NCBI GenBank assembly: GCA_038064355.1
Contig: JBBTTG010000019.1
Span: forward strand, 1 to 53,936
DNA: 53,936 nt
Origin: Patescibacteria group bacterium
Lineage (GTDB): Bacteria > Patescibacteriota > Patescibacteriia > GWA2-47-26
Reading direction: 5' to 3'
Part shown: in pieces, positions 635-53,936 of the stretch
Position numbering within the stretch: the first letter of the stretch is position 1
Layout of the letters: the number at the start of each line of letters is the position of its first letter
Notes under the pieces: generated by a model
Database searches by the model: none
Seen by the model: the letters and a program-made list of their open reading frames with translations, nothing else
What the model was told of the DNA's origin: nothing
Made by a program: the position numbers and the translations under genes

Positions 635-742
635 GAGACTGTAGAAAATACCTCTTTCTCTGTCATTGCGAGGAGTAAACGACGAGATTGCCGCGCCCAC
701 TCGATGAACTCGGGGCTCGCAATGACGAATTTTTACAGTCTC
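635..742. repeat. Composite palindromic element: family-D termini enclosing a family-C hairpin (661-727)
   Basis: Termini are GAGACTGTAGAAAA ... TTTTTACAGTCTC. The interior is TGTCATTGCGAGG ... CTCGCAATGAC. Confidence 0.8.
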
Positions 743-1364: not shown

Positions 1365-2490
1365 AATTACACCCGAAGAAGAAAAAATCAAAAGCGGACT
1401 GAAGGATGTTGGCAAGTCATTAAGGGATAAATCGCGCGCCGCGGATGACCGCTTGGGCGAGATGCTTGAAAATGTTTATGAAACAAGCGAAGGCAAAGGG
1501 GAAATTGGCTATGTTTTAAGTTTTTTTAAAAAGCCGTTGTTTTTAGTTCCTGCCGGATTGGTAGTTATATTCTTTGCAGTTATCATTTACAACGTTTACA
1601 AAGAATTTACTTACAACCCGTCTTATAATTATCCTTCTTACGGTGGTAGCTGGGAAGGAGGCGGAGATAGGTATTTTGGAGGGGCATCCGAAATGTCTGT
1701 AGGCGCAAGCTATCAACCCCCAACTTTTAAGCAAAGATTTTTGAGTCGGCTCGGACAAAATGAAGCAAGTCCGTATGAAATAGCCAAACGAGGGCCGATT
1801 CTTGAAAAAGACTTGAATGTTGAAATAATGACCGATAAAAAAGATGAAGCGAGCGGAATGATTCAAAACGCTTTTACTTCGCTTGGCGGTTTTATCAGCA
1901 GTATAAATAACGATACGGCCAGCCAGAGACGCGGCAGAATTTATGCCTATGGTAAAATCCCGGCCAATAACATAGAAGCATTCCGCATTCTGATAAAAGA
2001 TTTTGCCGAAGAAGAAAAATATTATCGCGAGGGGATACAAGCCAAAAGCCGGACAGCCGATATGATTGAAATTGAGAAAAAAATTAAAGAAGTTGAGGAT
2101 AGCGTCAAGTATTTAGAAGATGCCATTAAAAAAGAGGCAGATCCAGTGAAAAAAGCCGGGCTTGAAAAGAAATTAGCTGACAATCAGGCTTATCTTGGCG
2201 AACGAGAAGAGACGAAAAAAGGAATAGAAGAGAGGGTGGAATTTGTTGATGTGAAGCTGACCGCAATTGTCTTTCCAAAATTTTGGCAAGCCTCCTCAAT
2301 TGATGATTTCAAATCAATTTATGTGGGATTTGAAGAGCCGACTTTGCTTGATAAATTTAAAATAAATGCCACTCGTGTGCTGGTTATTTTCCTGCAAATT
2401 TTCAGCTACACTTTCTGGCTGATACCGATCATTATCTTGGTTTGGTGGAGGAAAAGAAAAGAAAAAGGACTACTTGAAGAGTTAGAATAA
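1342..2490 (+). CDS. Two-TM membrane protein, DUF4349-like; possible anti-sigma partner
   Basis: Overlaps the end of the sigma gene (alternative ATG at 1357). It has a cytoplasmic N-terminus, a TM segment LFLVPAGLVVIFFAVIIY, a coiled-coil ectodomain and a C-terminal TM segment. The family call is from memory of the architecture only. Confidence 0.5.
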   Translation: MTAKQMFKITPEEEKIKSGLKDVGKSLRDKSRAADDRLGEMLENVYETSEGKGEIGYVLSFFKKPLFLVPAGLVVIFFAVIIYNVYKEFTYNPSYNYPSYGGSWEGGGDRYFGGASEMSVGASYQPPTFKQRFLSRLGQNEASPYEIAKRGPILEKDLNVEIMTDKKDEASGMIQNAFTSLGGFISSINNDTASQRRGRIYAYGKIPANNIEAFRILIKDFAEEEKYYREGIQAKSRTADMIEIEKKIKEVEDSVKYLEDAIKKEADPVKKAGLEKKLADNQAYLGEREETKKGIEERVEFVDVKLTAIVFPKFWQASSIDDFKSIYVGFEEPTLLDKFKINATRVLVIFLQIFSYTFWLIPIIILVWWRKRKEKGLLEELE

Positions 2491-2633
2491 TAGGATGCCA
2501 TCAAAAAATATTTTTAAAAACCATTATACATACAGAAAGAGTCCCCGCAAAAGAGATTCTTATCTGCGATACCCAGGAGAGAGCCGCGTGGTTGCACACA
2601 CAGTTCTAGTGTCTAACGAGAAATAACTAAAGT

Positions 2634-2754
2634 GAGACTGTAGAAAAACGCGATCTGCTTCGTTGAAATCTGCGGTACTCACTCGCCGCACCTCAAGTGC
2701 ACCTCGATTCGTTCCTCGATTCCGTCTCGCATCTCATCATTTTTTTACAGTCTC
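2634..2754. repeat. Family-D MITE-like element (121 bp), diverged copy
   Basis: Termini are GAGACTGTAGAAAAACGCGATCTGC ... CGCATCTCATCATTTTTTTACAGTCTC. It aligns with the copies at 8340-8460 and 19068-19188. Confidence 0.85.
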
Positions 2755-2788
2755 AAAATACTGTGAATTACGAACACCCCTTCTCTTG

Positions 2789-2835
2789 TGTCATCCCCGC
2801 GAAAGCGGGGATCGACAGGGGGGGGCGGGGAATGA
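2789..2835. repeat. Family-F palindromic element (GTCATCCCCGCGAAAGCGGGGAT type)
   Basis: TGTCATCCCCGCGAAAGCGGGGATCGAC...GCGGGGAATGA. Related copies lie at 26901-27000, 34281-34350, 40207-40267 and 42944-43004. Confidence 0.7.
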
Positions 2836-2929
2836 TAAACAGAGAGTTTCGTAATTCAAAGAAAATAGCATTTTCTGTGCAAGTTCAAGTCTTGTACTAT
2901 CAAGTCTTTGTGTGTTCGTGACTTGCCCA

Positions 2930-3033
2930 CATCGCCTTCCCCCTTTGAAAAAGGGGGATTGAGGGGGATTTTCTCCAACCTGTTGCATAAATCCCTCGGC
3001 CTTCGGCCACTCCCTTTTTCAAAGGGAGAGAAA
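2930..3033. repeat. Family-G element, inverted relative to the copy at 39788-39925
   Basis: CCCCCTTTGAAAAAGGGGGATTGAGGGGGATTTTCTCC...CCCTCGGCCTTCGGCCACTCCCTTTTTCAAAGGGAGAG is the reverse complement of the 39.8 kb copy. Confidence 0.8.
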
Positions 3034-3130
3034 AATCCGACTGCCCATTGCGCGGCAGTGTAAAAAAACCGCAAAACCGCAACTCTCCCCCCTGTGCATA
3101 CTGACAGAGTGAACGAGCGTGATATGATGA

Positions 3131-3307
3131 AAGCGTAAGGATTGCTTTACTCAAGGTAAAACCTTGGAAGAAGCCAAGGCGATGGCCAAAGACGCTATCG
3201 ATGCCCATTGTCAAAGTTTAATGAAAGACGGCGAATCTATCCCTGAAGAAAAAGTTTATGAAGGTGAGTTTGTTGGGCACATGAGTTTTGAATTTCAGTA
3301 TGCATGA
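3131..3307 (+). pseudogene. HicB-family antitoxin remnant (C-terminal part only)
   Basis: The frame reads CFTQGKTLEEAKAMAKDAIDAHCQSLMKDGESIPEEKVYEGEFVGHMSFEFQYA*. It is preceded by two stops and has no plausible N-terminus. It resembles the GCMTQGETFEQAQERVKDAIQGYIEVLREDGEEVP segment of the intact hicB at 52217. Confidence 0.5.
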
Positions 3308-3372
3308 AGCCAAGACTGCCAGCTTTAGCTCTAAGGTTTTTTCAATTTTTTATAGCTTTCAAAAATTCCGCT

Positions 3373-4314
3373 TCAGTGTGAGCGTTTAGTATCTATAATT
3401 GCCAACCGATTAAGACCTGCAAGGTCTTTTTTTATTTTGATTTTGCAGGAGGGGAAATAGTGGCGGGCGAGGGTTTGAATGTCGTCGGATTGGTGGGGGC
3501 AAATTTCAAAAATTAAGTAAGTAGCGTGTAGGGAGTAGCGTGTAGAAAATTCCTTGAGCTGTTTCAAGAGGGTGCGGTAGTAGGTGAGGCCGTCTGGGCC
3601 GCCGTCCAGGGCGAGGCGGGGTTCATAGTGGCGCACGTCAGGCGGGGATTGCCGCCATTCGGAAGTTGGAAGATAAGGGAGGTTGGCGGTGATAAATAGC
3701 GTGTAGGGAGTAGCGTGTAGGGAGTAGACACGCAGGAAAGGCTCAAGAAGGTTGATATACAGGAAGGTGATATTTTTTTCGACGCCATGGAGGCGGGCGT
3801 TTTTGCGGGCGACGGTGAGTGCGGAGCGGGAGGCGTCGGTGGCGAAAAATTCAATTCCCCTCACCTCCATCCTCTCCCCGGAGGGGAGAGGGAGGGGAGA
3901 GGGGGCGAGGAGTTTGGCAAGAGCAATAATAACACACCCGCTACCGGTGCCGATGTCGATGATAACAGTTGGTAGCTTGTAGCTGGTAGCGAGTAGGTTG
4001 AGGGATTCTTTCACCATCAGTTCCGTCTCGGGGCGGGGAATGAGGACGCGCTTGTCCACGCAAAAATCCAATCCGTAAAATTCTTTGTGGCCGGTGATGT
4101 AGGCCACCGGCTCGTGCTTGGCGCGCCGTTTGATCAGTTTGCCGTAGGTAGCCGACTGTGAGCGTTGGAGATTGTATTCAGGATGAGCAAACAGTGTCTC
4201 CTTCGTGATTTTGAGTGTATGCGCGAGCAGTATTTCCGCATCGAGCGAGGCGGATTTGATTTTCGCAGATTGAAGACGGCTAGTGCCCCAGAGGAGAGCC
4301 TCTCGCGAGGTCAT
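3373..4314 (-). CDS. prmC: Release-factor glutamine methyltransferase PrmC/HemK, carrying several repeat-derived segments
   Basis: SAM motif IDIGTGSGCV. Other motifs are PRPETE and NLPY (in the NPPY position). It sits directly downstream of prfA. At 313 aa it is about 35 aa longer than typical PrmC. Confidence 0.9.
   Translation of the reverse strand: MTSREALLWGTSRLQSAKIKSASLDAEILLAHTLKITKETLFAHPEYNLQRSQSATYGKLIKRRAKHEPVAYITGHKEFYGLDFCVDKRVLIPRPETELMVKESLNLLATSYKLPTVIIDIGTGSGCVIIALAKLLAPSPLPLPSGERMEVRGIEFFATDASRSALTVARKNARLHGVEKNITFLYINLLEPFLRVYSLHATPYTLFITANLPYLPTSEWRQSPPDVRHYEPRLALDGGPDGLTYYRTLLKQLKEFSTRYSLHATYLIFEICPHQSDDIQTLARHYFPSCKIKIKKDLAGLNRLAIIDTKRSH
3518..3545. repeat. Heptanucleotide NNNGTAG tract (4 units) inside prmC
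   Basis: TAAGTAG CGTGTAG GGAGTAG CGTGTAG, translated on the minus strand as RYSLHATY. Confidence 0.85.
3693..3727. repeat. Heptanucleotide NNNGTAG tract (5 units) inside prmC
   Basis: TAAATAG CGTGTAG GGAGTAG CGTGTAG GGAGTAG, translated as VYSLHATPYTLF. It ends four codons upstream of the NLPY motif. Confidence 0.85.
3857..3908. repeat. Family-B GC-rich palindrome inside prmC
   Basis: CCTCTCCCCGGAGGGGAGAGG core, translated as PSPLPLPSGERMEVRG. It is about 85 percent identical by eye to the eno copy. Confidence 0.85.
3969..3996. repeat. Heptanucleotide NNNGTAG tract (4 units) inside prmC
   Basis: TTGGTAG CTTGTAG CTGGTAG CGAGTAG, translated as LATSYKLP just before the SAM-binding motif. Confidence 0.8.
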
Positions 4315-5799: not shown

Positions 5800-5834
5800 G
5801 GTATAGGGAGTAGGCGGTAGCGTGTAGACAGTAA
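5800..5834. repeat. Heptanucleotide NNNGTAG tract (5 units), intergenic
   Basis: GGTATAG GGAGTAG GCGGTAG CGTGTAG ACAGTAA, located between the terminator and rpmE. Confidence 0.8.
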
Positions 5835-8015: not shown

Positions 8016-8339
8016 TCCCCGTCATGTTTTCGCGTTTCTCGCTCCGCTCTTGACAATTTTTCGTCCTCGTGATGATATATTGGTAAGAGTGTTCGTTCTG
8101 TCTGCATTGCATCTGGTTGGCGGCCTCTGAATATTCCCCATCCCCGCGACATCCCTCCCCTCCCCGCGTGGCGTGGTTCAGGAAGTTCATTGGTCGTCCA
8201 ACCGTTTTCTTGGCCGTATGGTCATAAGGTTTGTTTTTTCAACGAAAGCGTCGTAACCCCCCCCGCAAACGACATTCGCTGGAGAGACACTCACTGTGAC
8301 TATACTGGCCAACTTTTGTTTATAATCGAGTTGTAATTT

Positions 8340-8460
8340 GAGACCGTAGAAAAACGCGATCTGCTTTGTTGAAACCTGCGGTATTCGCTCACCGTACCTT
8401 TCAGTACGGCTCGCTCACTCCTCGGTTTCGCCTCGCATCTCATCGTTTTTCTACAGTCTC
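8340..8460. repeat. Family-D MITE-like element (121 bp)
   Basis: Identical by eye to 19068-19188. It has roughly 20 bp terminal inverted repeats AATTTGAGACCGTAGAAAAA / TTTTTCTACAGTCTCAA and a central hairpin CCGTAC-CTTTCA-GTACGG. Confidence 0.9.
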
Positions 8461-8941
8461 AATTTCGCGGTCATGATTTCGCAAAGTCCCTGTAGCCGGT
8501 TTTTTCGCTACCAGGATTTGCCCAAAATGTGGTGGACTGATACAACGATTTGACTTTCTCCGCCAGGTGTGGTTTACTGAGCTATAAGCTTCGTTCTGTT
8601 CGACAATCGATGAGGTTGGTGACCTGGCGGTTTCCGCAAAATCCCTCTCTCCTTTCTGTTCTACTCTGGCTCATGCTCTGGTTCATACATGGCAATTGCG
8701 GATCCGTCGGTCACCAACCTTTGCTCTTTTCGCTGGGCTGAAGCCTTGGAAAGAAAGATGAACCGAAAATTGATCCCCCCCTCGACATGCGGTTCGGTGA
8801 ATTCTTTCCCCAAGGTTTCGGCCTTTTTTATTTTTTGTCCAGAATACCCCATGGCTTGCCATGGGGATGAATGGAAACAAAAAATAAAACCCCGCCTTGG
8901 CGGGGTCATATTACCGCACCGCAAGCAGTGTGATAATTGAT

Positions 8942-19057: not shown

Positions 19058-19067
19058 TATGTAATTT

Positions 19068-19188
19068 GAGACCGTAGAAAAACGCGATCTGCTTTGTTGA
19101 AACCTGCGGTATTCGCTCACCGTACCTTTCAGTACGGCTCGCTCACTCCTCGGTTTCGCCTCGCATCTCATCGTTTTTCTACAGTCTC
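19068..19188. repeat. Family-D MITE-like element inserted between rpsB and tsf
   Basis: Identical by eye to 8340-8460. Confidence 0.9.
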
Positions 19189-19229
19189 AAATTGTTCCCC
19201 GCGAAATTTTTTTTGCAACATTTTTATAT

Positions 19230-20984: not shown

Positions 20985-21033
20985 TGTCATTGCGAGCCCA
21001 GAGCTTGTCGAGGGGCGTGGCAATCTCGTCTCT
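20985..21033. repeat. Family-C left arm only (solo half element)
   Basis: TGTCATTGCGAGCCCAGAGCTTGTCGAGGGGCGTGGCAATCTCG aligns with the left arm of the element at 21350-21398. Confidence 0.75.
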
Positions 21034-21072
21034 TAAGATAGGAAAGAAGAAAAAAGATATGGTGTTTATATA

Positions 21073-21333
21073 ATGACAAACCAGCGAAACACGACTCTTT
21101 ACACTGGCGTAACGGGCAATTTGGCGAAGCGGGTTTGGGAACATAAAAATAAAGGAGTCAAAGGGTTTACCGAAAAATACAATATCGGTAAACTCGTTTA
21201 TTTTGAGGTGTTTCCTTCGCCATACGAAGCGATACAAAGAGAAAAGCAGATCAAGGCTGGATCGAGGAAAAAAAAGCTGGATCTTATTGCAAAGATGAAT
21301 CCTGAATGGAAGGATTTAAGTGATTCATTGTAG
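21073..21333 (+). CDS. GIY-YIG nuclease family protein (86 aa, COG2827/UPF0213-like)
   Basis: LYTGVTGNLAKRVWEHK...YFEVF...AIQREKQIKAGSRKKK matches the GIY...YIG / R / E core. Confidence 0.85.
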   Translation: MTNQRNTTLYTGVTGNLAKRVWEHKNKGVKGFTEKYNIGKLVYFEVFPSPYEAIQREKQIKAGSRKKKLDLIAKMNPEWKDLSDSL

Positions 21334-21349: not shown

Positions 21350-21436
21350 TTGTTATCGCGAGTCCCGACGCTTCAGTCGGAACGTGGCGATCTCGAATCT
21401 CGGCGGGATTGCTTCGCTCCGCTCGCAATGACAGTC
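21350..21436. repeat. Family-C palindromic element, complete, intergenic
   Basis: TGTTATCGCGAGTCCCGACGC...GATTGCTTCGCTCCGCTCGCAATGACA. Confidence 0.85.
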
Positions 21437-21441
21437 TTGAT

Positions 21442-22707
21442 ATGAACGAATTTTTTCTCAAAACGTCCGAATTTGATTACCCTTTACCCGAGCGGCTCAT
21501 TGCGCAGAAGCCGTTTTCGCCGCGCGATTGTTGCCGTCTGCTTGTTTTGCATCGCGAGAGCGGGAAGATGGAACACCGGAAATTCTTTGATATTACGGCA
21601 TATCTTCGCGCGGGTGATGTGCTTGTGCTCAACGACAGCCGTGTTTTTAAAGCGAGACTTTTTGGAAGATTGTCATTGCGAGGAGCGGGGCGACGAAGCA
21701 ATCCCGTCCAAGTACAAGATCGCCGCGCCTCGCCTGCGGTGAAGCTCGCGATGACAGAGAAAAAGATAGAGGTATTTTTGTTGAGGGAAGTTGATAAAAC
21801 GGGAACATGGGAAGCGTTGGGAAATCCCGGGAAAAAATTAAAAGACGGGGTGAAGGTTTCTTTTTCAAAAACCGTCGAGTGTGAAGTCATCGGGAAGCGT
21901 GAAGGGAAATATCTGGTGCGTTTTAATATCCGCGGCTTGGCTTTTCAAAAGTTTTTGGCGCGGTATGGCCATGTGCCCATTCCTCCTTATATAGGGAAGG
22001 AGCCAAAAGACGCCGGAGACTATCAAACCGTCTATGCGCGGCAGAGCGGGTCAGTCGCCGCTCCGACGGCCGGGTTTCATTTCACGAAACGCCTTTTAAA
22101 AAAGATTGAGCGCATGGGAGTGGAGGTGCGATATATCACTTTGCATGTCGGATATGGAACATTTAAGCTCGTGAAATCCGAAGAGGTGAGCGCGCATAAG
22201 ATGGAAGAAGAGTGGGTGGAAATTTCGGCAGAGACCGCACGAGCGATTTCGCGCGCCAAGAGCGAGGGCAGGAGAGTGGTTGCCGTTGGGACGACGACAG
22301 TCAGAGCGCTTGAGGGATACTCCCTGATTAGTCATCGCGAGGAGCCGAAGGCGACGCGGCGATCCCGTACTCGAAACGAGATTGCTTCTCCGCCAAAGGC
22401 GGATCGCAATGACATTCTTTCGGCCTACTCCGGTCCTGTAAATATATTCATCTACCCCCACACCAAAAATTTTGGTGTGGGGGTAAACCCGGGCTATAAG
22501 TTTCAAATCGTTGACGCGCTGGTGACCAATTTTCACCTGCCAAAATCCACTCTGCTCGTGCTCGTTTCCGCCTTCGCGAAATCCCCCCTCTCCCTTGATG
22601 GGAGAGGGCAGGGTGAGGGTGTCATTTTGATCAAAACCGCCTACCAAGAGGCAATCAAGAAAAAATATCGCGTTTATTCGTTTGGAGATGCGATGATAAT
22701 TGTGTAG
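21442..22707 (+). CDS. queA: S-adenosylmethionine:tRNA ribosyltransferase-isomerase, with four in-frame palindromic insertions
   Basis: FDYPLPERLIAQKP, PIPPYI, YQTVYA, AAPTAGFHFT, VGTTTVRALE, VDALVTNFHLPKSTLLVLVSAF, YRVYSFGDAM. The start was trimmed to MNEFFLK. Confidence 0.93.
   Translation: MNEFFLKTSEFDYPLPERLIAQKPFSPRDCCRLLVLHRESGKMEHRKFFDITAYLRAGDVLVLNDSRVFKARLFGRLSLRGAGRRSNPVQVQDRRASPAVKLAMTEKKIEVFLLREVDKTGTWEALGNPGKKLKDGVKVSFSKTVECEVIGKREGKYLVRFNIRGLAFQKFLARYGHVPIPPYIGKEPKDAGDYQTVYARQSGSVAAPTAGFHFTKRLLKKIERMGVEVRYITLHVGYGTFKLVKSEEVSAHKMEEEWVEISAETARAISRAKSEGRRVVAVGTTTVRALEGYSLISHREEPKATRRSRTRNEIASPPKADRNDILSAYSGPVNIFIYPHTKNFGVGVNPGYKFQIVDALVTNFHLPKSTLLVLVSAFAKSPLSLDGRGQGEGVILIKTAYQEAIKKKYRVYSFGDAMIIV
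21671..21756. repeat. Family-C element inside queA
   Basis: TGTCATTGCGAGG...CTCGCGATGACA, translated as LSLRGAGRRSNPVQVQDRRASPAVKLAMT between the conserved LFGR and KKIEVF. Confidence 0.9.
22330..22414. repeat. Family-C element inside queA, read in a different frame from the first copy
   Basis: AGTCATCGCGAGG...GGATCGCAATGACAT, translated as ISHREEPKATRRSRTRNEIASPPKADRNDI. Confidence 0.9.
22455..22483. repeat. Perfect 14 bp-arm palindrome inside queA
   Basis: CCCCCACACCAAAA-A-TTTTGGTGTGGGGG, translated as PHTKNFGVGV inside the conserved IYP-GYKF segment. Confidence 0.85.
22581..22621. repeat. Family-B GC-rich palindrome inside queA
   Basis: CCCTCTCCC-TTGAT-GGGAGAGGG followed by CAGGGTGAGGG, translated as PLSLDGRGQGEG. 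Confidence 0.8.
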
Positions 22708-25125: not shown

Positions 25126-26425
25126 GCGTATTCAAAGTATTCATGCCTACGAAATATTGGACTCGCGCGGGAATCCGACCGTGCGGGTGAGGGTGCGCCT
25201 GAAAGATGGTTCCGAGGGAGTCGCCTCGGTGCCTTCGGGCGCCTCGACCGGCGTGCATGAAGCGCTCGAACTTCGCGATGGAGACAAAAAGCGCTATGGC
25301 GGCAAGGGGGTGCAAAAGGCGTGCCGATTTGTGAATAAAATCATGGCTCCAAGGATTGCCGGTATGGCGGTGGAGGATCAACGAGTCATAGATGGTTTGA
25401 TGTGCGAGCTCGATGGGACAAAGCACAAGTCGCATTTTGGAGCTAATGCTATTTTGGGTATATCGCTTGCCTGCGCGCACGCGGGTGCGGCATCGGCCAA
25501 GCTCCCGCTTTATCGCTACCTCCGCAAAATCTACTCTCTCCACGCTACTCCATACAGGTTGCCCCACCCAATGATGAACATCCTTAATGGCGGACGGCAC
25601 GCGGATTGGAGTTTGGATTTGCAGGAGTGCATGATCGTGCCCGGGCAGAAGAAGTTTTCCGATCGCCTGCGTTGCGGCGCGGAGGTTTTTCATGCGTTGT
25701 ATGATATCTTGAAGAAACGAGGGCTTACGGTCGGTGTGGGCGACGAAGGGGGATATGCGCCGCGTTTAAAAAGCAATGAAGAGGCTTTTCGTCTCATCGG
25801 CGAGGCGGTGCAAGCGGCGGGATATATGTATGGAAAACAAGTGAAGGTGGCGATTGATGCCGCGGCCTCGGAGTTCTATAACGGAAAAACAGGACGTTAT
25901 GAGATGAATGTGGATAAGAAAAAATTGAGCTCGGATGAGCTGGGAAAACTCTATAGACGATGGATGAAGCAGTATCCGCTGATTTCCCTTGAGGATCCAT
26001 TTGCCGAAGATGATTGGGACGCGTGGAAGAAGTTTACTCATCAACTTTCCTCACCCTTCCCTCTCCCCAGAGGGGAGAGGATTAAGGTGAGGGGGAAAGG
26101 CACCATGATCGTTGGAGATGATCTTTTCGTAACGAATGTTGAGCGTTTAAAGAAAGGGATAGAAATGGGAGTGGGGAATGCCATTCTTATCAAGGTCAAT
26201 CAGATAGGCACGCTCTCCGAGACCATGGATGCGATTGATCTGGCGCGAAAACATGATTACCGCGTGATCCTTTCTCACCGCTCGGGTGAGACCGCGGATA
26301 CGACGATCGCGGATTTGGCCGTGGCGGTGAATGCCGACTACATCAAGACCGGAAGCCTCTCGCGCAGCGAACGCGTGGAAAAATATAATCGATTGCTGGA
26401 GATTGAGTCGGAAGTGAGTTTGTGA
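25124..26425 (+). CDS. eno: Enolase, with two repeat-derived segments
   Basis: ILDSRGNPTV, SGASTG, PMMNILNGG, GDEGGYAP, VGDDLFVTN, IKVNQIGTLSET, SHRSGETAD. Confidence 0.96.
   Translation: MRIQSIHAYEILDSRGNPTVRVRVRLKDGSEGVASVPSGASTGVHEALELRDGDKKRYGGKGVQKACRFVNKIMAPRIAGMAVEDQRVIDGLMCELDGTKHKSHFGANAILGISLACAHAGAASAKLPLYRYLRKIYSLHATPYRLPHPMMNILNGGRHADWSLDLQECMIVPGQKKFSDRLRCGAEVFHALYDILKKRGLTVGVGDEGGYAPRLKSNEEAFRLIGEAVQAAGYMYGKQVKVAIDAAASEFYNGKTGRYEMNVDKKKLSSDELGKLYRRWMKQYPLISLEDPFAEDDWDAWKKFTHQLSSPFPLPRGERIKVRGKGTMIVGDDLFVTNVERLKKGIEMGVGNAILIKVNQIGTLSETMDAIDLARKHDYRVILSHRSGETADTTIADLAVAVNADYIKTGSLSRSERVEKYNRLLEIESEVSL
25531..25558. repeat. Heptanucleotide tract (CTACNNN orientation) inside eno
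   Basis: CTACTCT CTCCACG CTACTCC ATACAGG, translated as YSLHATPYR. prmC carries the same peptide. Confidence 0.85.
26048..26097. repeat. Family-B GC-rich palindrome inside eno
   Basis: CCTCACCC-TTC-CCTCTCCCC-AGA-GGGGAGAGG-ATTAA-GGTGAGGG, translated as SSPFPLPRGERIKVRG before VGDDLFVTN. Confidence 0.9.
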
Positions 26426-26873: not shown

Positions 26874-27030
26874 ATAGGACTTACGCACTTGACCTCTTTC
26901 TGTCATCCTCGCGAATGCGGGGATCCAGTATCCAGGCTCCTTTCCGAGGCCTGGATTCCCGCTGGAGTTTACCCCGCACTGGTGCGGGGCGGGAATGACA
27001 CCCCTAAATGGGTTTTTGCGTAAGTTCTAT
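26874..27030. repeat. Composite element: family-E termini enclosing a family-F palindrome
   Basis: Termini are ATAGGACTTACGCACTTGACC ... TGCGTAAGTTCTAT. The interior is TGTCATCCTCGCGAATGCGGGGATCCAG...GCGGGGCGGGAATGACA. Confidence 0.8.
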
Positions 27031-27133
27031 ACGAGCTACATCGACGAACGCGTGGAAAAATATAATCGATTGCTCGTGTTTGTTGTTGTTTTGTTTTTTT
27101 GGGAAAACCTGATACAGTGGGCGTACTTATTTT

Positions 27134-34244: not shown

Positions 34245-34377
34245 GAGACTGTAGAAAAACTCTTAAAAATCACTTCCTTCTGTCATTCCCGCGAAAGCGG
34301 GAATCCAGAAACCACTTCAAACCTGGATCCCCGCTTTCGCGAGGATGACAGAAAGAGGTCAAGTGCGAAGTCCTATA
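34245..34377. repeat. Chimeric element: D-type left end, family-F core, E-type right end
   Basis: GAGACTGTAGAAAAA..., then TGTCATTCCCGCGAAAGCGGGAATCCAG...GAGGATGACA, then ...GGTCAAGTGCGAAGTCCTATA. Confidence 0.8.
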
Positions 34378-34851: not shown

Positions 34852-37800
34852 ATGCGAAAAGGAGTCATTATAGCAAAAAGTCTGCTCTGGGCGGCATCTT
34901 TTGTGTTTTTTGTCGGTATACTCGGTGCGCGTGCCGGTGTACTCACTCCATCTGCCGCTCCCGGAGCCACCATGCGCACCTTAACCGAGATTTTTGACGC
35001 GCTTGCCGGCACCTATGATGCTACGTCGCAATCCGCATCGGCAAATGGCAATGTGGTGCAACAGCTCAAATATATCGCCACTCTTGGCATTCAGAATATC
35101 TACACGAATTCCTCATCGGCCACCATCACGACCGCCAGTGGCAAGGATGTAACTTTTAGTTTGGCGGATACCGCCACGGATTCAGACATCATCGTGGATA
35201 TTTTGGGCACGGGTAACACCTTTGAGGTGCGCGACACCGGCACCGCCGTATTCACTGTTGCCGATGGCGGAATAAGTACCGTTACCGGATCGCTTGGGCT
35301 TGCTCCAAACGGTGCGGGAGCCGGGGCGACCAGCCCCGTGCGGTTTTATGAGCTTGCCGCCGGTGGGTCCAATTACATTGCCTTCAAGGCTCCCGATGCC
35401 ATTGCCGCAAATGTAACTTGGATATTGCCCGATGCCGATGGCGCGAGCGGACAATCGCTCTCGACGAATGGCAGCGGAACATTGAGCTGGACTACTCCAT
35501 CGGGAGCGGGCGATATTACCGCCGTTGGTTCCATGATTACCTCCGCCGTTTTTGCCGATACCACCGCTGACGATGATTGGCTCGGCTTGGGCGCCGCGGC
35601 CGGACGCATTGAGTTTGACGATCAGGCGACTGATGAAGTGAATATTTTGAATGCCAGCGTGGGTATCGGCACCAGCACCCCGGGTTCAACGCTTGACGTA
35701 ACCGGTACGGTCAATATCAGTTCAACGCTTACGGTTGGCGGAACGACTACGTTTGACGGAGTGCAGATTATAGATAATACGGGTGTGGAAGCGTTTCTCG
35801 TCCGTCAAAATGCTGACGCGGGCGATGTATTTACAGTAAACACCACCGCTCCCTCTGTAACGCTTGGGACGAGTGTTTCCCTCACCACCACCGGCGGCGG
35901 TTCTCTCACGGGAACATGGACCGACCTTGGTTCCGTAACCACCGTAGACATCAACGGAGGCACGATTGACGGTGTAACGATCGGAGGATCATCCGCCGGC
36001 GCCGGTACATTTACAACCCTTCAGAGCACGCCCTCAAAGACCGTCGCCTCGGCAACCGGCGCTGTCTATGACGGCTTCACCATTCCCGCCGCCACAATGA
36101 CGGCTTCGGGAAGCACGGCCATCACCACGGCAACCGGATTTAATCTGATGAATGTATCCATCCCGAACATCGCCACCGCGGCCAATGTAACCAATTCGTC
36201 TACGGTGTACATCGCGGGCGCTCCGACCATTTCCGGAGGCGGGGCGATTACCAATGCCTACGCCCTCTGGGTGGACGCGGGAGAATCCCGTTTTGACGGG
36301 AATCTTGAGTTTGGAACCGGTGTAGCCATCACGGCCGGTGATTATATGATTGGCCGCGATGCCGATGGCACAAACCAGCTTCATTTCAATGTGCCAACCG
36401 GAGCGTCAATGGAATGGAGCATCAACGATGTTTCAAGAATGGTGATGAATAGCTCCGGGCAATTGGAACTGCGTCAATTTTCTACTGACGCGGTTGCCAA
36501 TCAACTCACTGTACGAAAAGCGCGTGGAACGGAAGGATCCCAAACGATTGTCGCAAATAATGATAACCTCGGTCTCGTTGAATTTCAAGGTTATGATGGA
36601 GCAGGCACTCATCAGCCAGCCGCTAGGATTCTTGCAAGAGTGAATGGAACTCCCGGAGCGGGAGATATGCCCGGAATCTTATCCTTGCAGACAACCCTAG
36701 ACGGCGCGGCTGCTCCAACGGAAAGGATGACCATTGATAACGGTGGAAACTTCGTCTTTACGCAGGGAGCGCAAGCATCCGGCTCGCCCACCGGCCTCAC
36801 CTTCACCGGCGGAGCGCATACCACGCTTGCCGCATCAACTGAAGCAACTGATATCAACTTCAATTTAGCCAGAACAGTCCAATTTGCCACAGGAGCTCTT
36901 GCGAGCCAGAGAGCAATGTTAATTCAAGCTCCCACCTATGCTTTTGCGGGCGCATCCACACTCGCAAGCGCGTCAACATTGGTGCTTACCGGCGCTCCCC
37001 AAGCAGGAACCAACGCGACTATCACAGCGACCTATGGATTGGTTGTCAATTCAAATACGTACGCGAGTAGCGAGGCTTATCAGGCAAACATCGGAATGCC
37101 GGGAATTTCTAACGGAATTGGAGCCGTGGCAAACCGTTTTGGGTTATCAATTACCGGCTCTAATACTTCGCTCGGGAACCAAACTGCCGCCTTAAGTTCT
37201 CTTATAGGGTTGTTTATCGATCCGGGAACATACGTATCCACCACAAATACAAGAACGGTAACGCAAGCCACTGGTTTAGTGGTCGGTCCTCCCTCGGCGG
37301 GAGCGAATGTTGCGATGACCACGGTGGCGTCTGGAGCGTTCGGAGACAATGCAACCCATGTCAGCGCCGCCGGGTTTAATTATTCGGATATCATCACTGG
37401 CGGCAATACCTTAACGCTTACCGGCACCACCAATGTTACCAGCACACCCGGCGTATCCAGCGTCAATGTCGGGCAGATTACGGTTACAGATTCTTCCGCC
37501 GTGACGGTGAATAATTCCGCGAGTGTTTATATCGCCGACGCTCCCATTGCGGCTGGTTCAGTAACCCTAACAAATGCGTATTCCTTATGGGTGGATGCGG
37601 GAGCGGCGAGATTGGATGGCACGCTGGCCTTGAATGATGCGGCAACTCTTACAAAAGACGGTATCGCCGCCACATCAACCGATGGTTTCGTACTCCAGAA
37701 TACGACCGATTCCACCGTAGGCGTTCCAAACCAATGGTCGCCTCGCGCGAGACAACACGCCGAGGTTTGGGATACCGACGGGAGCAACGATACATTTGAT

Positions 37801-39786
37801 TTCATACAGGAGGTAAAGGGCACCAGCGCGGCAACGACTTTGGCCGACTTCACCTTGTCCATGTCGAAAAACGGAGGGGCGTATAACGATTTGATTTCTG
37901 TTGATGAAGCGGGAAACCTGGCGATTCTGAACCAGCCGGCACAAATCCAATTCGCCAATGGCCAGTATTTTCAGGATAATAACAACGGAGGATTGAATAT
38001 TTATTCCCCGGCGGCATTGAATTTCTCTCTTGGGGCAAGCTATCCGAATACGAGTCCAATTTGGGGAGTCACGGGCGGCACAAGGACGGCCGGCGCGGCG
38101 GACGACAAAGGTTTCAGCTTTACCAATACGCTTAATGATTCCTCCACCGCCGGTGGAGAATCCTATACGGCGTTCTTTGTAAACATCACCGAAACCAACA
38201 AGACGGGCTGGCCAACGGTAAACCTGATGGATTTGCAGGTTGGCGCGGTGAGCAAGTTTCTTGTGAATGACGCGGGAGGTATAACAAGCGCAGGCGGACA
38301 AACATCAATCACACCCACTTTTTCCGTTGCTTCCGCCGCCGGGGCGGTCTATAACGGCCTCACTATTCCCGCCACAACGATGACATTGTCGGGTTCAACT
38401 GGTGTTACCACCGCAACAGGATTCAATCTGATAAACATTGCAATTCCCAATATCGCCACGACTGATGCGAACGCCGATGTTACCAATACGGCAACGGTTT
38501 ACATTGCCGGCGCTCCGACCATTTCCGGAGGCGGGGCGATTACGAATTCCTACTCTTTGTGGGTTGATGCGGGAACGGTGAGGTTTGATGGAGCGGTTAT
38601 TATGGGCGGACTTGCTTCGGGCACGGGCGGCGGCACCTATGATGCTATTTGTTTGAATACCGCCGACAATGCGCTTACCGTGAATACCAACGGAGACGAT
38701 TGTGTTGTTTCTTCGCGACGGTTTAAAGAGAATATTGCGAATCTTGATCTTGGTCTCTCGTTCATTAACGCTTTGACTCCAAGGCAGTTTAATTACATCG
38801 GAGAAGGCGATTCGCGCGTCGGATTCATCGCTGAAGAAGTGGCGGCAATTGATTCACGTCTCATGTTTTATGAAAATGATGGAGTTACCGCGCGCGGTGT
38901 CAGGTATCAGGATATGACAGCCGTGCTTACAAAAGCGGTGCAGGAACAGCAGGCGCAGATACAGAAGTTAACGTTAGATTTACAGGGGTTATTGAATGGA
39001 GGCGGGTCATCCTCGTCAGGCGGGTCGGCCTATACCGCCGGATATTGGTCGCTTGACGACAAGGGGAACCTGGTCGCGGATAAGGCGATTGGATTGAAGG
39101 TTTCCACGAGCAAGGGTGAGCGGACGCTGATGGCGCTTCTTGGCGCCAAAGCGGAGCTTATGCTTTCCGGAAGCTCGGAGCTGGTGGGCGGAGAGAGGAG
39201 GATTTATTTTCAAGAGTTTGATGAGACCTTCGCCGAGCTCGTTTCCGCGACTACACCGTTTAAGGTCTTACTTACACCCACTTCGTCCACACAAGGTCTC
39301 TATATTGCCGAAAAAATCAAAGAACTGGTTGAGGGTCGGGAGCGTTATGTTGGTTTTCGTGTAAAGGAGCAGGGAAGCGGCACATCTTCCGGTACATTTG
39401 ATTGGGTGGTGGTGGCGGTGCGCGAGGGTTTTGAAGGGGATGCGCCGGTGGTGCCGGCAGTGGCGGCGCCGATAGCAAACCCCTCACCCCAACCCTTTCC
39501 CACAGGGGGAGAGGGAGACGCGACAGAACAATCGCCAGTTGAACCAGTCGCGCCCGTAGCTCCGGTTGAGCAGGCGGCTCCTGTTGTTCCCGTTGAACCG
39601 GTAGCGCCCATTGAGCCGATAACTCCGGTTGAACCCGCACCTGTTGCTCCGTCTGCTCCCGTTGCACCACCGATTGTTCCCGAAGTGCCAGTCGAGCCCA
39701 TAGCACCAGTGGAACCGGCGGCTCCTATTGAAGAACCTGTCGCTCCGATTGAACCACCGGCAACCGCTGAACCCCCAGCGACTTAA
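34852..39786 (+). CDS. Giant secreted/anchored tail-fibre-like surface protein (1644 aa) with an internal peptidase-S74 intramolecular-chaperone domain
   Basis: - AAGGAGG SD upstream.
- N-terminal TM/signal segment.
- Tail-fibre-like motif [39 protein letters not shown].
- Three roughly 90-aa modules ending in [27 protein letters not shown].
- S74-like segment [12 protein letters not shown]...VGFIAEEV...[24 protein letters not shown] at about 38710-38975.
- Pro-rich PVEPxAP tail. Confidence 0.8.
39478..39520. repeat. Family-B-like GC-rich palindrome inside the giant gene
   Basis: CCCTCACCCCAACCCTTTCCCACAGGGGGAGAGGGAG, translated as [14 protein letters not shown]. Confidence 0.6.
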
Positions 39787-39787
39787 A

Positions 39788-39925
39788 CGGTTCTCTCCCT
39801 TTGGAAAAGGGAGTGGCCGAAGGCCGAGGGATTTGCGTCAATGGTTTTGGGAAAATCCCCCTTAATCCCCCTTGTTTCTCCGCCAGAGGCGGATCCGCCT
39901 CTGGCGGAGAAGGGGGAAGTCAAAA
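39788..39925. repeat. Family-G element with a nested perfect palindrome (39868-39909)
   Basis: CTCTCCCTTTGGAAAAGGGAGTGGCCGAAGGCCGAGGG...AAAATCCCCCTTAATCCCCCTT, interrupted by CTCCGCCAGAGGCGG-AT-CCGCCTCTGGCGGAG. Confidence 0.8.
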
Positions 39926-40206: not shown

Positions 40207-40267
40207 TTGTCATTCCAGCGGAAGCGGGAATCCAGGCCTGGACCCCGCATCAAGTGCGGGGTGACAA
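40207..40267. repeat. Family-F palindromic element
   Basis: TTGTCATTCCAGCGGAAGCGGGAATCCAGGCCTGGACCCCGCATCAAGTGCGGGGTGACAA. Confidence 0.8.
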
Positions 40268-42919: not shown

Positions 42920-43004
42920 AATCCCGTCATTCTCCCCACCAATCCCGTCATTCCCGCGCAGGCGGGAATCCAGGCATAGACCCCCGCTTTCGCGAGGGTG
43001 ACAG
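42920..43004. repeat. Family-F element with a partial duplication of its left end
   Basis: AATCCCGTCATTCTCCCC, then AATCCCGTCATTCCCGCGCAGGCGGGAATCCAGG...CGCGAGGGTGACAG. Confidence 0.8.
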
Positions 43005-43013
43005 ATTAACTTC

Positions 43014-43194
43014 TATAGGACTTACGCGCTTCCGCCCGGGAGTCCTGTAATTGTGGAACTTCCCATGGCGGAAGCCACAGGGGTTTGACCAATCTCTTCG
43101 TTAAAAGGCTCTGCTCTTGCTCGCCGTAGCTCTACTACGCCTCGCAACATCCTCGCCTTTTGCCTCGACCTTGGTCAAACGCGTAAGTCCTATT
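43014..43194. repeat. Family-E MITE-like element (about 180 bp) with perfect 14 bp terminal inverted repeats
   Basis: ATAGGACTTACGCG ... CGCGTAAGTCCTAT. Its first 66 bp recur at 53871-53936 with two mismatches. Confidence 0.9.
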
Positions 43195-53870: not shown

Positions 53871-53936
53871 TATAGGACTTCCGCGCTTCCGCCCAGGAGT
53901 CCTGTAATTGTGGAACTTCCCATGGCGGAAGCCACA
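53871..53936. repeat. Family-E element, left part (cut by the window end)
   Basis: TATAGGACTTCCGCGCTTCCGCCCAGGAGTCCTGTAATTGTGGAACTTCCCATGGCGGAAGCCACA matches 43014-43079 with two mismatches. Confidence 0.9.

Follow-up and report, generated by a model that had tools for sequence, protein, structure and literature searches.

Palindromic repeats of three families lie in frame within the queA gene of a Patescibacteria genome

Palindromic elements that lie in frame within genes are already known, with the Rickettsia palindromic elements (RPEs) as the extreme case. As summarized from Ogata et al. (2000) in PMC10969869, RPEs are short palindromes of several families that are found in frame in unrelated housekeeping genes, at positions compatible with the protein fold, and also between genes. 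The pairing of hairpin repeats with Ssn nucleases is likewise established. These are single-domain GIY-YIG proteins that act as site-specific single-strand DNA nucleases, binding NTS or SRM hairpin repeats and cutting upstream of them (Chenal et al. 2025, PMC11893778). SRM-type repeats occur near 71% of ssn genes, and the same paper likens this repeat–gene–repeat layout to insertion sequences (IS) and to the repetitive extragenic palindromic (REP) repeats with their RAYT enzymes (PMC11893778). Here these systems are compared with a 53,936-nt contig (the window) from the metagenome-assembled genome of an uncultured, ultra-small Patescibacteria bacterium, in which queA (21442..22707, + strand), a housekeeping gene of tRNA modification, contains four palindromic segments, designated inserts (i) to (iv), all kept in frame. 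An earlier note on this DNA had described the four segments and likened them to RPEs, and both statements hold, the second in the sense that the elements work like RPEs. The four are not one kind of element: the inserts belong to three unrelated repeat families, and only (i) and (ii) share one.

The queA open reading frame (ORF) at 21442-22707 was matched by Pfam profile PF02547 with an E-value of 1.7e-114, all 322 profile positions being spanned across 421 aa, compared with ~340 aa in canonical QueA. The top PDB sequence matches of the product are the QueA structures 1VKY, 1YY3, and 1WDI, and an identical protein (P0001) carries the name QueA at NCBI. All residues that are invariant in an alignment of 119 relatives are kept in the window QueA. 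Insert boundaries were set against the solved structures and these 119 relatives, as the earlier note had proposed. The HMMER alignment to 1VKY and 1YY3 consists of three blocks, with breaks after residues 77-81 and ~292-301 and a 13-residue gap on the C-terminal side, and these breaks and the gap correspond to the four segments. All of the insert peptides that had been quoted are present in the translation, which includes the stretches LSLRGAGRRSNP, SHREEPKATRR, YPHTKNFGVGV, and SPLSLDGRGQGEG.

Insert (i) (21670..21756, - strand; 29 codons, LSLRGAGRRSNPVQVQDRRASPAVKLAMT) and insert (ii) (22330..22414, + strand; SHREEPKATRRSRTRNEIASPPKADRND) are hairpin elements of a family with GTCATYGCGAG ends, hereafter the GTCAT family. 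The palindrome of insert (i), at 21671-21756, has 12-nt terminal inverted repeats and an RNA fold of -37.3 kcal/mol (z -2.5), and that of insert (ii), at 22330-22414, folds at -38.6 kcal/mol (z -3.6). As had been noted, the two are read in different frames, insert (i) as TTG TCA TTG... and insert (ii) as AGT CAT CGC..., and the internal asymmetry of the element shows that they are also oppositely oriented. Insert (iii) (22453..22485, no strand assigned) is a 33-nt perfect palindrome of 11 codons (YPHTKNFGVGV) with 16-nt arms around a single central base and a fold z of -6.1; its core is the 29-bp element CCCCCACACCAAAA-A-TTTTGGTGTGGGGG. Insert (iv) (22582..22620, + strand; 13 codons, SPLSLDGRGQGEG) is a hairpin-plus-tail, CCCCTCTCCC-TTGAT-GGGAGAGGG-CA-GGGTGAGGG, in which the hairpin at 22586-22608 has perfect 9-nt arms and a 5-nt loop, and it accounts for the 13-residue gap against both 1VKY and 1YY3. 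Perfect hairpins (arm of at least 9 nt, loop of at most 12 nt) are enriched in the coding sequences of the window, with 11 found versus 2.6 in codon shuffles (maximum 6). Likewise, the window contains 10 matches to GTCATYGCGAG with no more than one mismatch, versus 2.4 expected, a count reached by no shuffle.

The position of the inserts in the protein was assessed in an AlphaFold2 model of the window QueA built on the 119 relatives, which has a mean predicted local distance difference test (pLDDT) score of 83.5 and a predicted template modelling (pTM) score of 0.85. Foldseek searches with this model returned the three QueA structures, with E-values of 1e-30 to 1e-23. Low-confidence coil is predicted only at residues 81-105, 301-328, 339-350, and 381-392, that is, at the four inserts, with pLDDT values of 48-65 for (i), 58-59 for (ii), below 50 for (iii), and ~55 for (iv). 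The structure prediction that the earlier note had asked for thus places all four inserts in predicted loops compatible with the QueA fold.

The GTCAT elements are ~85-nt hairpins built of two inverted GTCAT...AATC units. A strict pattern for the family retrieved 103 stretches from viral contigs, with the consensus GTCATTGCGAGG-AGCGAAGCGA-CGAAGCAATCCAG, a variable part of 15-25 nt, and CTGGATTGCTTCG-CT-TCG-CTCGCAATGAC. The RNAalifold structure combines an outer and an inner stem with a small side hairpin, and 7 of its 24 pairs show compensatory changes. The base adjoining each end of the element follows a Y...R pattern, mostly complementary, and no target motif was seen at the insertion sites. 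Intergenic copies had been reported at 661-727 and 21350-21436, and both were confirmed. The element at 21350..21436 (+ strand) is complete and lies between the stop codon of an upstream GIY-YIG gene and the queA start (-38.5 kcal/mol, z -3.3). The copy at 661..727 (+ strand) is nested in a second inverted repeat (634-743), and a left arm alone is present at 20985..21030 (+ strand). In total, two of the five copies in the window are in frame within a gene. Elsewhere, two copies were found within phage portal genes, both in frame; Pfam supported the identity of these genes. A value of ~42% for GTCAT elements in ORFs was discarded as inflated by shadow ORFs of GC-rich contigs.

Family (iii), that of insert (iii), bears a mark of transposition. 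The pattern CCCACACCAAAA-N(0-5)-TTTTGGTGTGGG retrieved at least 120 metagenome stretches, mostly from groundwater and sediment samples, and none from viral contigs. The core, [C/T]CCCCACACCAAAA-N-TTTTGGTGTGGGG[G/A], is 29 bp long in 48 of 60 non-redundant copies and is stop-free in every frame. Exact 4-bp direct repeats abut the core in half of these copies (30 of 60, versus 8.9 expected and at most 17 in 2000 permutations), and 14 more have 4-bp repeats with one mismatch; 3-bp and 5-bp repeats gave no signal in the flanks of the 60 copies. The duplicated sequences are TAAA (11 copies), TTTA (9), CAGG, TTAA, TGAA, and TCAA (2 each), and CGAG and TTGA (1 each). The pattern is that of a target-site duplication, and family (iii) is therefore a transposed element. 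A 29-bp core plus a 4-bp duplication gives 33 bp, or 11 codons, so that a typical insertion is frame-neutral. In line with this, 13 of 70 copies are inside ORFs open for at least 80 aa on either side, and all 10 of the host ORFs tested are genuine housekeeping genes, encoding Der GTPase, a nucleotidyltransferase/kinase, NAD(P)HX dehydratase, a MinD/ParA-ferredoxin protein, Pol IV, DprA, a DegT aminotransferase, a Mur ligase, an AAA ATPase, and PNPase. Another QueA (P0008, nt 417-522 of locus L428) contains a longer relative that shares the family (iii) termini, a 104-nt ORF-less element, TCCCCACACCTTC...GAAGGTGTGGGGA, which occupies a third loop in frame with a TAAA duplication, 108 nt or 36 codons in all. 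It was the sole such relative retrieved, and no parent insertion sequence was identified, in searches that did not reach ends 1-2 kb apart.

Terminal inverted repeats, the lack of an ORF, many dispersed copies, and a duplication of fixed length together indicate that family (iii) is a minimal miniature inverted-repeat transposable element (MITE). It shares with Correia, ERIC, RUP, and Nezha the terminal inverted repeats, the fixed duplication, its non-coding nature, and the longer relative with the same termini. It differs from them in that its core is essentially just its two ends, joined through a single base, and in that insertion typically preserves the frame. MITEs are usually 50-500 bp in size, well above 29 bp. 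In-frame fusions by intragenic MITEs have been described as "not unusual" (review PMC10969869).

Family (iv), a cosmopolitan repeat with the consensus CCCTCTCCC-loop-GGGAGAGGG-yyr-GGGTGAGGG, was found in at least 120 viral-contig stretches. All four of its copies in the window lie in coding sequences, those of PrmC, QueA, enolase, and a 1644-aa protein. The enolase copy (26046..26095, + strand) is in frame (SSPFPLPRGERIKVRGKG) and contributes 11 extra residues relative to enolase 1IYX. The copy at 3857..3905 (- strand) is in frame (APSPLPLPSGERMEVRG) in a gene for a PrmC/HemK-like methyltransferase with a PrmC_N domain, and the copy at 39480..39517 (+ strand) is in frame in the gene for the 1644-aa protein (34852-39786).

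Comparison with relatives shows that the inserts are of different ages. The nearest relative is a 3.4-kb Logan contig from SRR22388050 (L001), which has ~75-80% nucleotide identity to the window and the same queA–pgk synteny. Insert (i) is present at the identical site in L001, with a 9-nt in-frame indel between the two copies in the DNA alignment; its ends are 93% and 80% identical and its middle 66%, compared with ~75% for the gene core. The right end of the GTCAT element at 21350-21436 is also found upstream of queA in L001. At site (ii), L001 has another, AT-rich filler, and inserts (iii) and (iv) are missing as clean in-frame gaps of 33 and 39 nt. Thus (i) is common to the nearest relative and (iii) and (iv) are not. 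The condition that the earlier note had named as refuting, repeat-free relatives that encode the same peptides, was thus not borne out by L001, and the inserts are DNA repeats rather than lineage-specific peptides.

The same loops have also been hit independently in other lineages. In the related locus L002, site (i) contains the palindrome TCCCCCTTT/AAAGGGGGA, site (ii) a GTCAT element with perfect ends in the same frame as in the window, and another loop a palindrome with 13-nt arms; in L003, two further small palindromes were found in queA. Other palindrome families therefore occupy sites (i) and (ii) in these two loci. Among more distant proteins, site (ii) of P0064 is occupied by a GTCAT element of 101 nt, in a frame different from that of the window, and site (i) of P0102 by another, in a third frame. 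The palindromes of L002, L003, P0064, and P0102 thus reflect several independent hits on these loops. Of the 120 closest QueA homologues (median length, 371 aa), roughly 10-15 have GTCAT-family peptide signatures. Genome contigs retrieved with the QueA protein contain mostly non-Patescibacteria queA genes of normal length.

A small single-domain GIY-YIG gene (21073..21333, + strand; PF01541, E 8.7e-13) is located ~110 nt upstream of queA, in a frame that is open from 21037. Its 86-98-aa product contains PF01541 alone, and homologues of 86-122 aa are abundant (at least 7908 at E<=1e-10), with 65-81% identity in Patescibacteria, Atribacterota, and KSB1. In the PDB, the closest sequence is that of 1ZG2 (UPF0213), with an E-value of 3.4e-5, and searches against NCBIfam returned nothing over the cut-offs. 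In the window, the GTCAT left arm at 20985 lies directly upstream of this gene and the full short element at 21350 downstream, a layout also seen in L429, L439, L449, L450, and L455. In L429 the end of the left arm coincides with the ATG of the GIY-YIG gene and the start of the right arm with its stop codon; in L439, L450, and L455 the gene stands between GTCAT arms; and in L449 the left arm is at the ATG, with only the upstream arm present as the contig ends. Arms as well as full elements lie beside the gene in L456 and L457. Related NTS-like GTCAT...GGGAC inverted pairs flank it on both sides in L459 and L461, and in L460 only the upstream pair is found. It is this reverse test, starting at the nuclease genes, that links the GIY-YIG gene to the GTCAT elements, and in these loci nuclease subfamilies pair with their own repeat variants. 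In L439-L448, tandem 26-28-nt units, each beginning GTCATTGCGAG, lead into a full left arm (~330-500, 1329-1400); the array lies upstream of the GIY-YIG gene and recurs ~430 nt downstream.

The arrangement resembles Ssn/NTS in several respects: a ~90-aa single-domain GIY-YIG protein flanked by hairpin repeats with a GTCAT start and an AATCYRG end (PMC11893778), an IS-like repeat–gene–repeat architecture, and repeat variants by nuclease subfamily. The GTCAT units share with the SRM only the 5' GTCAT and the 3' AATCCAG, and their hairpin arises between two inverted units. Inserts (i) and (ii) are accordingly best described as probable variant Ssn-associated repeats in inverted pairs, not strict SRMs, because the published SRM pattern is unmatched and a single unit forms no stable hairpin. 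A further difference is that NTS are reported to be rarely intragenic, at 2% (PMC11893778), compared with two of the five GTCAT copies here, both in frame. Likeness to REP and bacterial interspersed mosaic elements (BIMEs) with RAYT, and to palindromes derived from IS200/IS605, lies in the many dispersed hairpins and in a nuclease gene flanked by its own repeats, and the lack of a GTCAT target-site duplication is as in single-strand "peel and paste" transposition. The enzyme associated with the GTCAT elements belongs to the GIY-YIG nucleases rather than to the Y1 (HUH) transposases, and REPs are extragenic by definition.

Strict Ssn-type motifs are present in the window as well. The exact Neisseria NTS consensus, GTCATTCCCGCGMAVGCGGGAATCYRG, occurs with zero mismatches at 34282 and 42947, so that Neisseria shares this consensus with a Patescibacteria genome. 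Six window sites, versus 0.3 in shuffles, match the SRM pattern as published, HGTCWYN(0-2)YYVSBRHN(0-5)WNVSBRGN(0-2)RNCYNB, and all six are outside genuine coding sequences. NTS/Ssn-related motifs are located at 34281-34350, 42946-43003, 40209-40266, and 26901-26928, several as head-to-head inverted pairs, and all NTS-type motifs of the window lie outside genuine coding sequences.

The reading that we favor, and consider likely, is that queA was hit four times by short non-autonomous mobile palindromes of three families, in a colonization of genes resembling that by RPEs. Each surviving insert consists of whole codons, is stop-free in the frame used, and falls in a predicted surface loop. Insertions would land widely, and purifying selection would remove copies that shift the frame, add stops, or hit structure; queA would stay functional, with the inserts read through as extra disordered loops. 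An Ssn-type GIY-YIG nuclease may mobilize or maintain inserts (i) and (ii) via single-stranded hairpin DNA, as RAYT does for REP, and a transposase making 4-bp staggered cuts may move family (iii). The anatomies of the three families differ, and their mobilization mechanisms probably differ too.

Several observations weigh against parts of this account. Translation of the inserts is deduced from preservation of the frame and absence of stops. At offsets 0-3, the GTCAT elements showed no target-site duplication; for (iii), the copy in the window is flanked by TCTA and TAAA, two mismatches apart, so that its duplication is not clean, and the diverged empty site for (iii) in L001, ATC|AAA, shows no duplication. 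L001 is the sole close relative and a short contig, and its queA has a 1-nt indel at about nt 830 (column 799 of alignment A3) that truncates the called protein (P0002) at 304 aa, which may mean that the gene is a pseudogene or that this low-coverage Logan contig was misassembled. Concerning the nuclease, no unit beginning GTCATTGCGAG fits the published SRM pattern, and a single consensus unit is unstable as a hairpin (-1.6 kcal/mol, z +1.0). No GIY-YIG homologue was found in 715 kb of viral-contig loci rich in short GTCAT elements, and a further 3 Mb from the element-rich search contained one; the absence of a link that this element-first search had suggested was overturned by starting from the GIY-YIG genes. 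Finally, the window frame at 21037-21075 codes for the conserved first strand YGVYI, with no ATG, GTG, or TTG before 21073. The protein may thus be truncated at its N terminus or use an unusual start, and, lacking a canonical start for this strand, it may be inactive. An annotated length of 86 aa is also found for many of the homologues in databases.

The hairpins could instead be kept for a function, as Ssn recognition sites that control recombination or uptake of essential-gene DNA, a role proposed for Neisseria NTS–gene–NTS arrangements (PMC11893778), or as sites of transcription or translation pausing. We regard this as unlikely, even though an Ssn-like gene adjoins queA, the stems of the family covary, and Ssn/NTS modulates transformation in Neisseria (PMC11893778). 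Between the window and L001, conservation is higher at the ends of insert (i) than in the surrounding gene, which would suit a function but equally fits a recent origin or gene conversion among copies. Loop occupancy varies among close lineages, and unrelated families swap at one site, a pattern that suits tolerance better than a conserved role; the nearest relative does without (iii) and (iv), and the same elements are dispersed between genes and within many unrelated ones.

Hairpins of -37 to -39 kcal/mol in a coding sequence look costly, and this raises the thought of their removal ahead of protein synthesis or maturation, in an intron- or intein-like manner that would make the frame irrelevant. 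No support was found for such removal, which appears very improbable: the inserts and the copies in other genes all consist of whole codons and are stop-free, which splicing would not require, and the indel in insert (i) between the relatives is 9 nt. Rfam gave no match to any ribozyme or intron, either at gathering thresholds or at E<=1, and with 11-29 codons the inserts are far under intein size. Hardly any weight is given, too, to assembly or amplification artefacts, or to lineage-specific loops that are palindromic by chance. The contig does come from a metagenome-assembled genome, repeats break and mis-join assemblies, and many GIY-YIG homologues are on very short contigs. Against this, the same 1466 nt are found in a second public assembly, GCA_964365935.1, insert (i) is at the same site in an independent sample, and hundreds of contigs of unrelated projects have genes with in-frame copies of the same families; a chimera would seldom keep the frame four times. 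Chance loops are countered by the membership of the palindromes in DNA repeat families, which are not peptide-level features. Colonization by mobile palindromes remains our preferred explanation.

As such, the elements are comparable to RPEs in a host that is also a reduced-genome, host-dependent bacterium, with differences in phylum, in size (33-87 nt here, roughly 100-150 bp for RPEs as summarized in PMC10969869), and apparently in sequence. Here, in addition, four elements of three families share one gene, one family has a measurable 4-bp target-site duplication, and another is tied to a GIY-YIG gene. They are not filed as RPEs, being set apart by length and host phylum. A connection between RPEs and Ssn is possible, as Rickettsia, with Wolbachia, is among the genomes rich in Ssn-related motifs (PMC11893778). 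The earlier note had been unaware of such behavior in this kind of genome, and this fits the searchable literature, in which nothing was found on these repeat sequences or on Patescibacteria with MITEs or palindromic repeats in coding regions; the repeat–nuclease pairing itself has been known since 2025 from PMC11893778, which mentions neither Patescibacteria nor in-frame insertion. By that measure, what is new is the host group, the density (four inserts of three families in one gene, with more in its neighbors), the intragenic Ssn-type repeats, and the frame-neutral 29+4 bp element.

In-frame palindromic colonization of essential genes would thus not be limited to Rickettsia: it is found again in the Candidate Phyla Radiation, where several families act together and one gene may have up to four copies. 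Protein lengths and "lineage-specific insertions" in these genomes would be partly repeat-derived, giving a concrete system for how new surface loops arise. GTCAT-element peptides match short "hypothetical proteins" in a Spirochaetaceae MAG (metagenome-assembled genome), Rhodopseudomonas, and Bradyrhizobium, and because the matches to such ORFs are many, those called over these repeats are probably spurious. Ssn nucleases gain a candidate role as drivers of mobile elements, and the 29-bp core with its 4-bp duplication offers a testable minimal transposition substrate. More speculatively, and with considerable doubt, frame-neutral hairpin families might feed loops into essential proteins across Patescibacteria and possibly other host-dependent bacteria. 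GTCAT elements would then be ORF-less derivatives of an IS-like unit with Ssn, between its two arms, as the only gene; Ssn would count as a novel type of transposase, in a system that also includes the Rickettsia RPEs. No known MITE would be smaller than the 29-bp element, and its 33-bp insertion would explain survival in genes.

Further repeats were noted in the window. An intergenic element of ~131-134 nt with inverted ends AATTTGAGACCGTAGAAAAACG is present at 2626-2759, 8332-8465, and 19060-19193, and also at 34245-34260; two of its copies are 99% identical. The same ends, at 634-743, enclose the GTCAT element at 661-727, giving a repeat within a repeat. A perfect 36-nt palindrome, TTCTCCGCCAGAGGCGGA|TCCGCCTCTGGCGGAGAA, is located at 39876-39911, and its CTCCGCCAAAGGCGG module is also found within insert (ii) (~22385-22403) and in the L001 copy of insert (i). 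A longer version of this module, as direct repeats, flanks a distant GIY-YIG gene in L325 (8000-8600). Two repeat families are nested or adjacent outside this genome too, as in L212 (~1910-1975), where a GTCATTGCGAGCGAAGCGAAGCAATCT arm directly abuts a family (iv) unit.

Genes near queA contain repeats of other types. The non-palindromic repeat CTACTCCCTACACGCTAC is found at 25535 in enolase, at 3723, 3534, and 3969 in the PrmC-like gene, and at 5800; enolase has it in frame as YSLHATPY, and so does the PrmC-like gene, two to three times. As L002 and L003 have a loop of equal length at the enolase site, the repeat may be old there. The final ~38 nt of enolase (26368-26405) recur 677 nt downstream (27045-27082) with 92% identity, which suggests a partial duplication or the remnant of a second copy. 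A repeat of 66 nt, with 97% identity between 43014-43079 and 53871-53936, reaches the contig end with its second copy and may have ended the assembly at 53936. The stretch at 2490-3373 is gene-poor and packed with repeats, including a TCCCCCTTTGAAAAAGGGGGA palindrome at 2938-2958 with a partner at 3012-3029, a GTCATCCCCGCGAAAGCGGGGATC unit at 2790, and a copy of the 134-nt element. In L002 and L003, QueA site (i) has an in-frame member of the TCCCCCTTT palindrome family that is present in this stretch.

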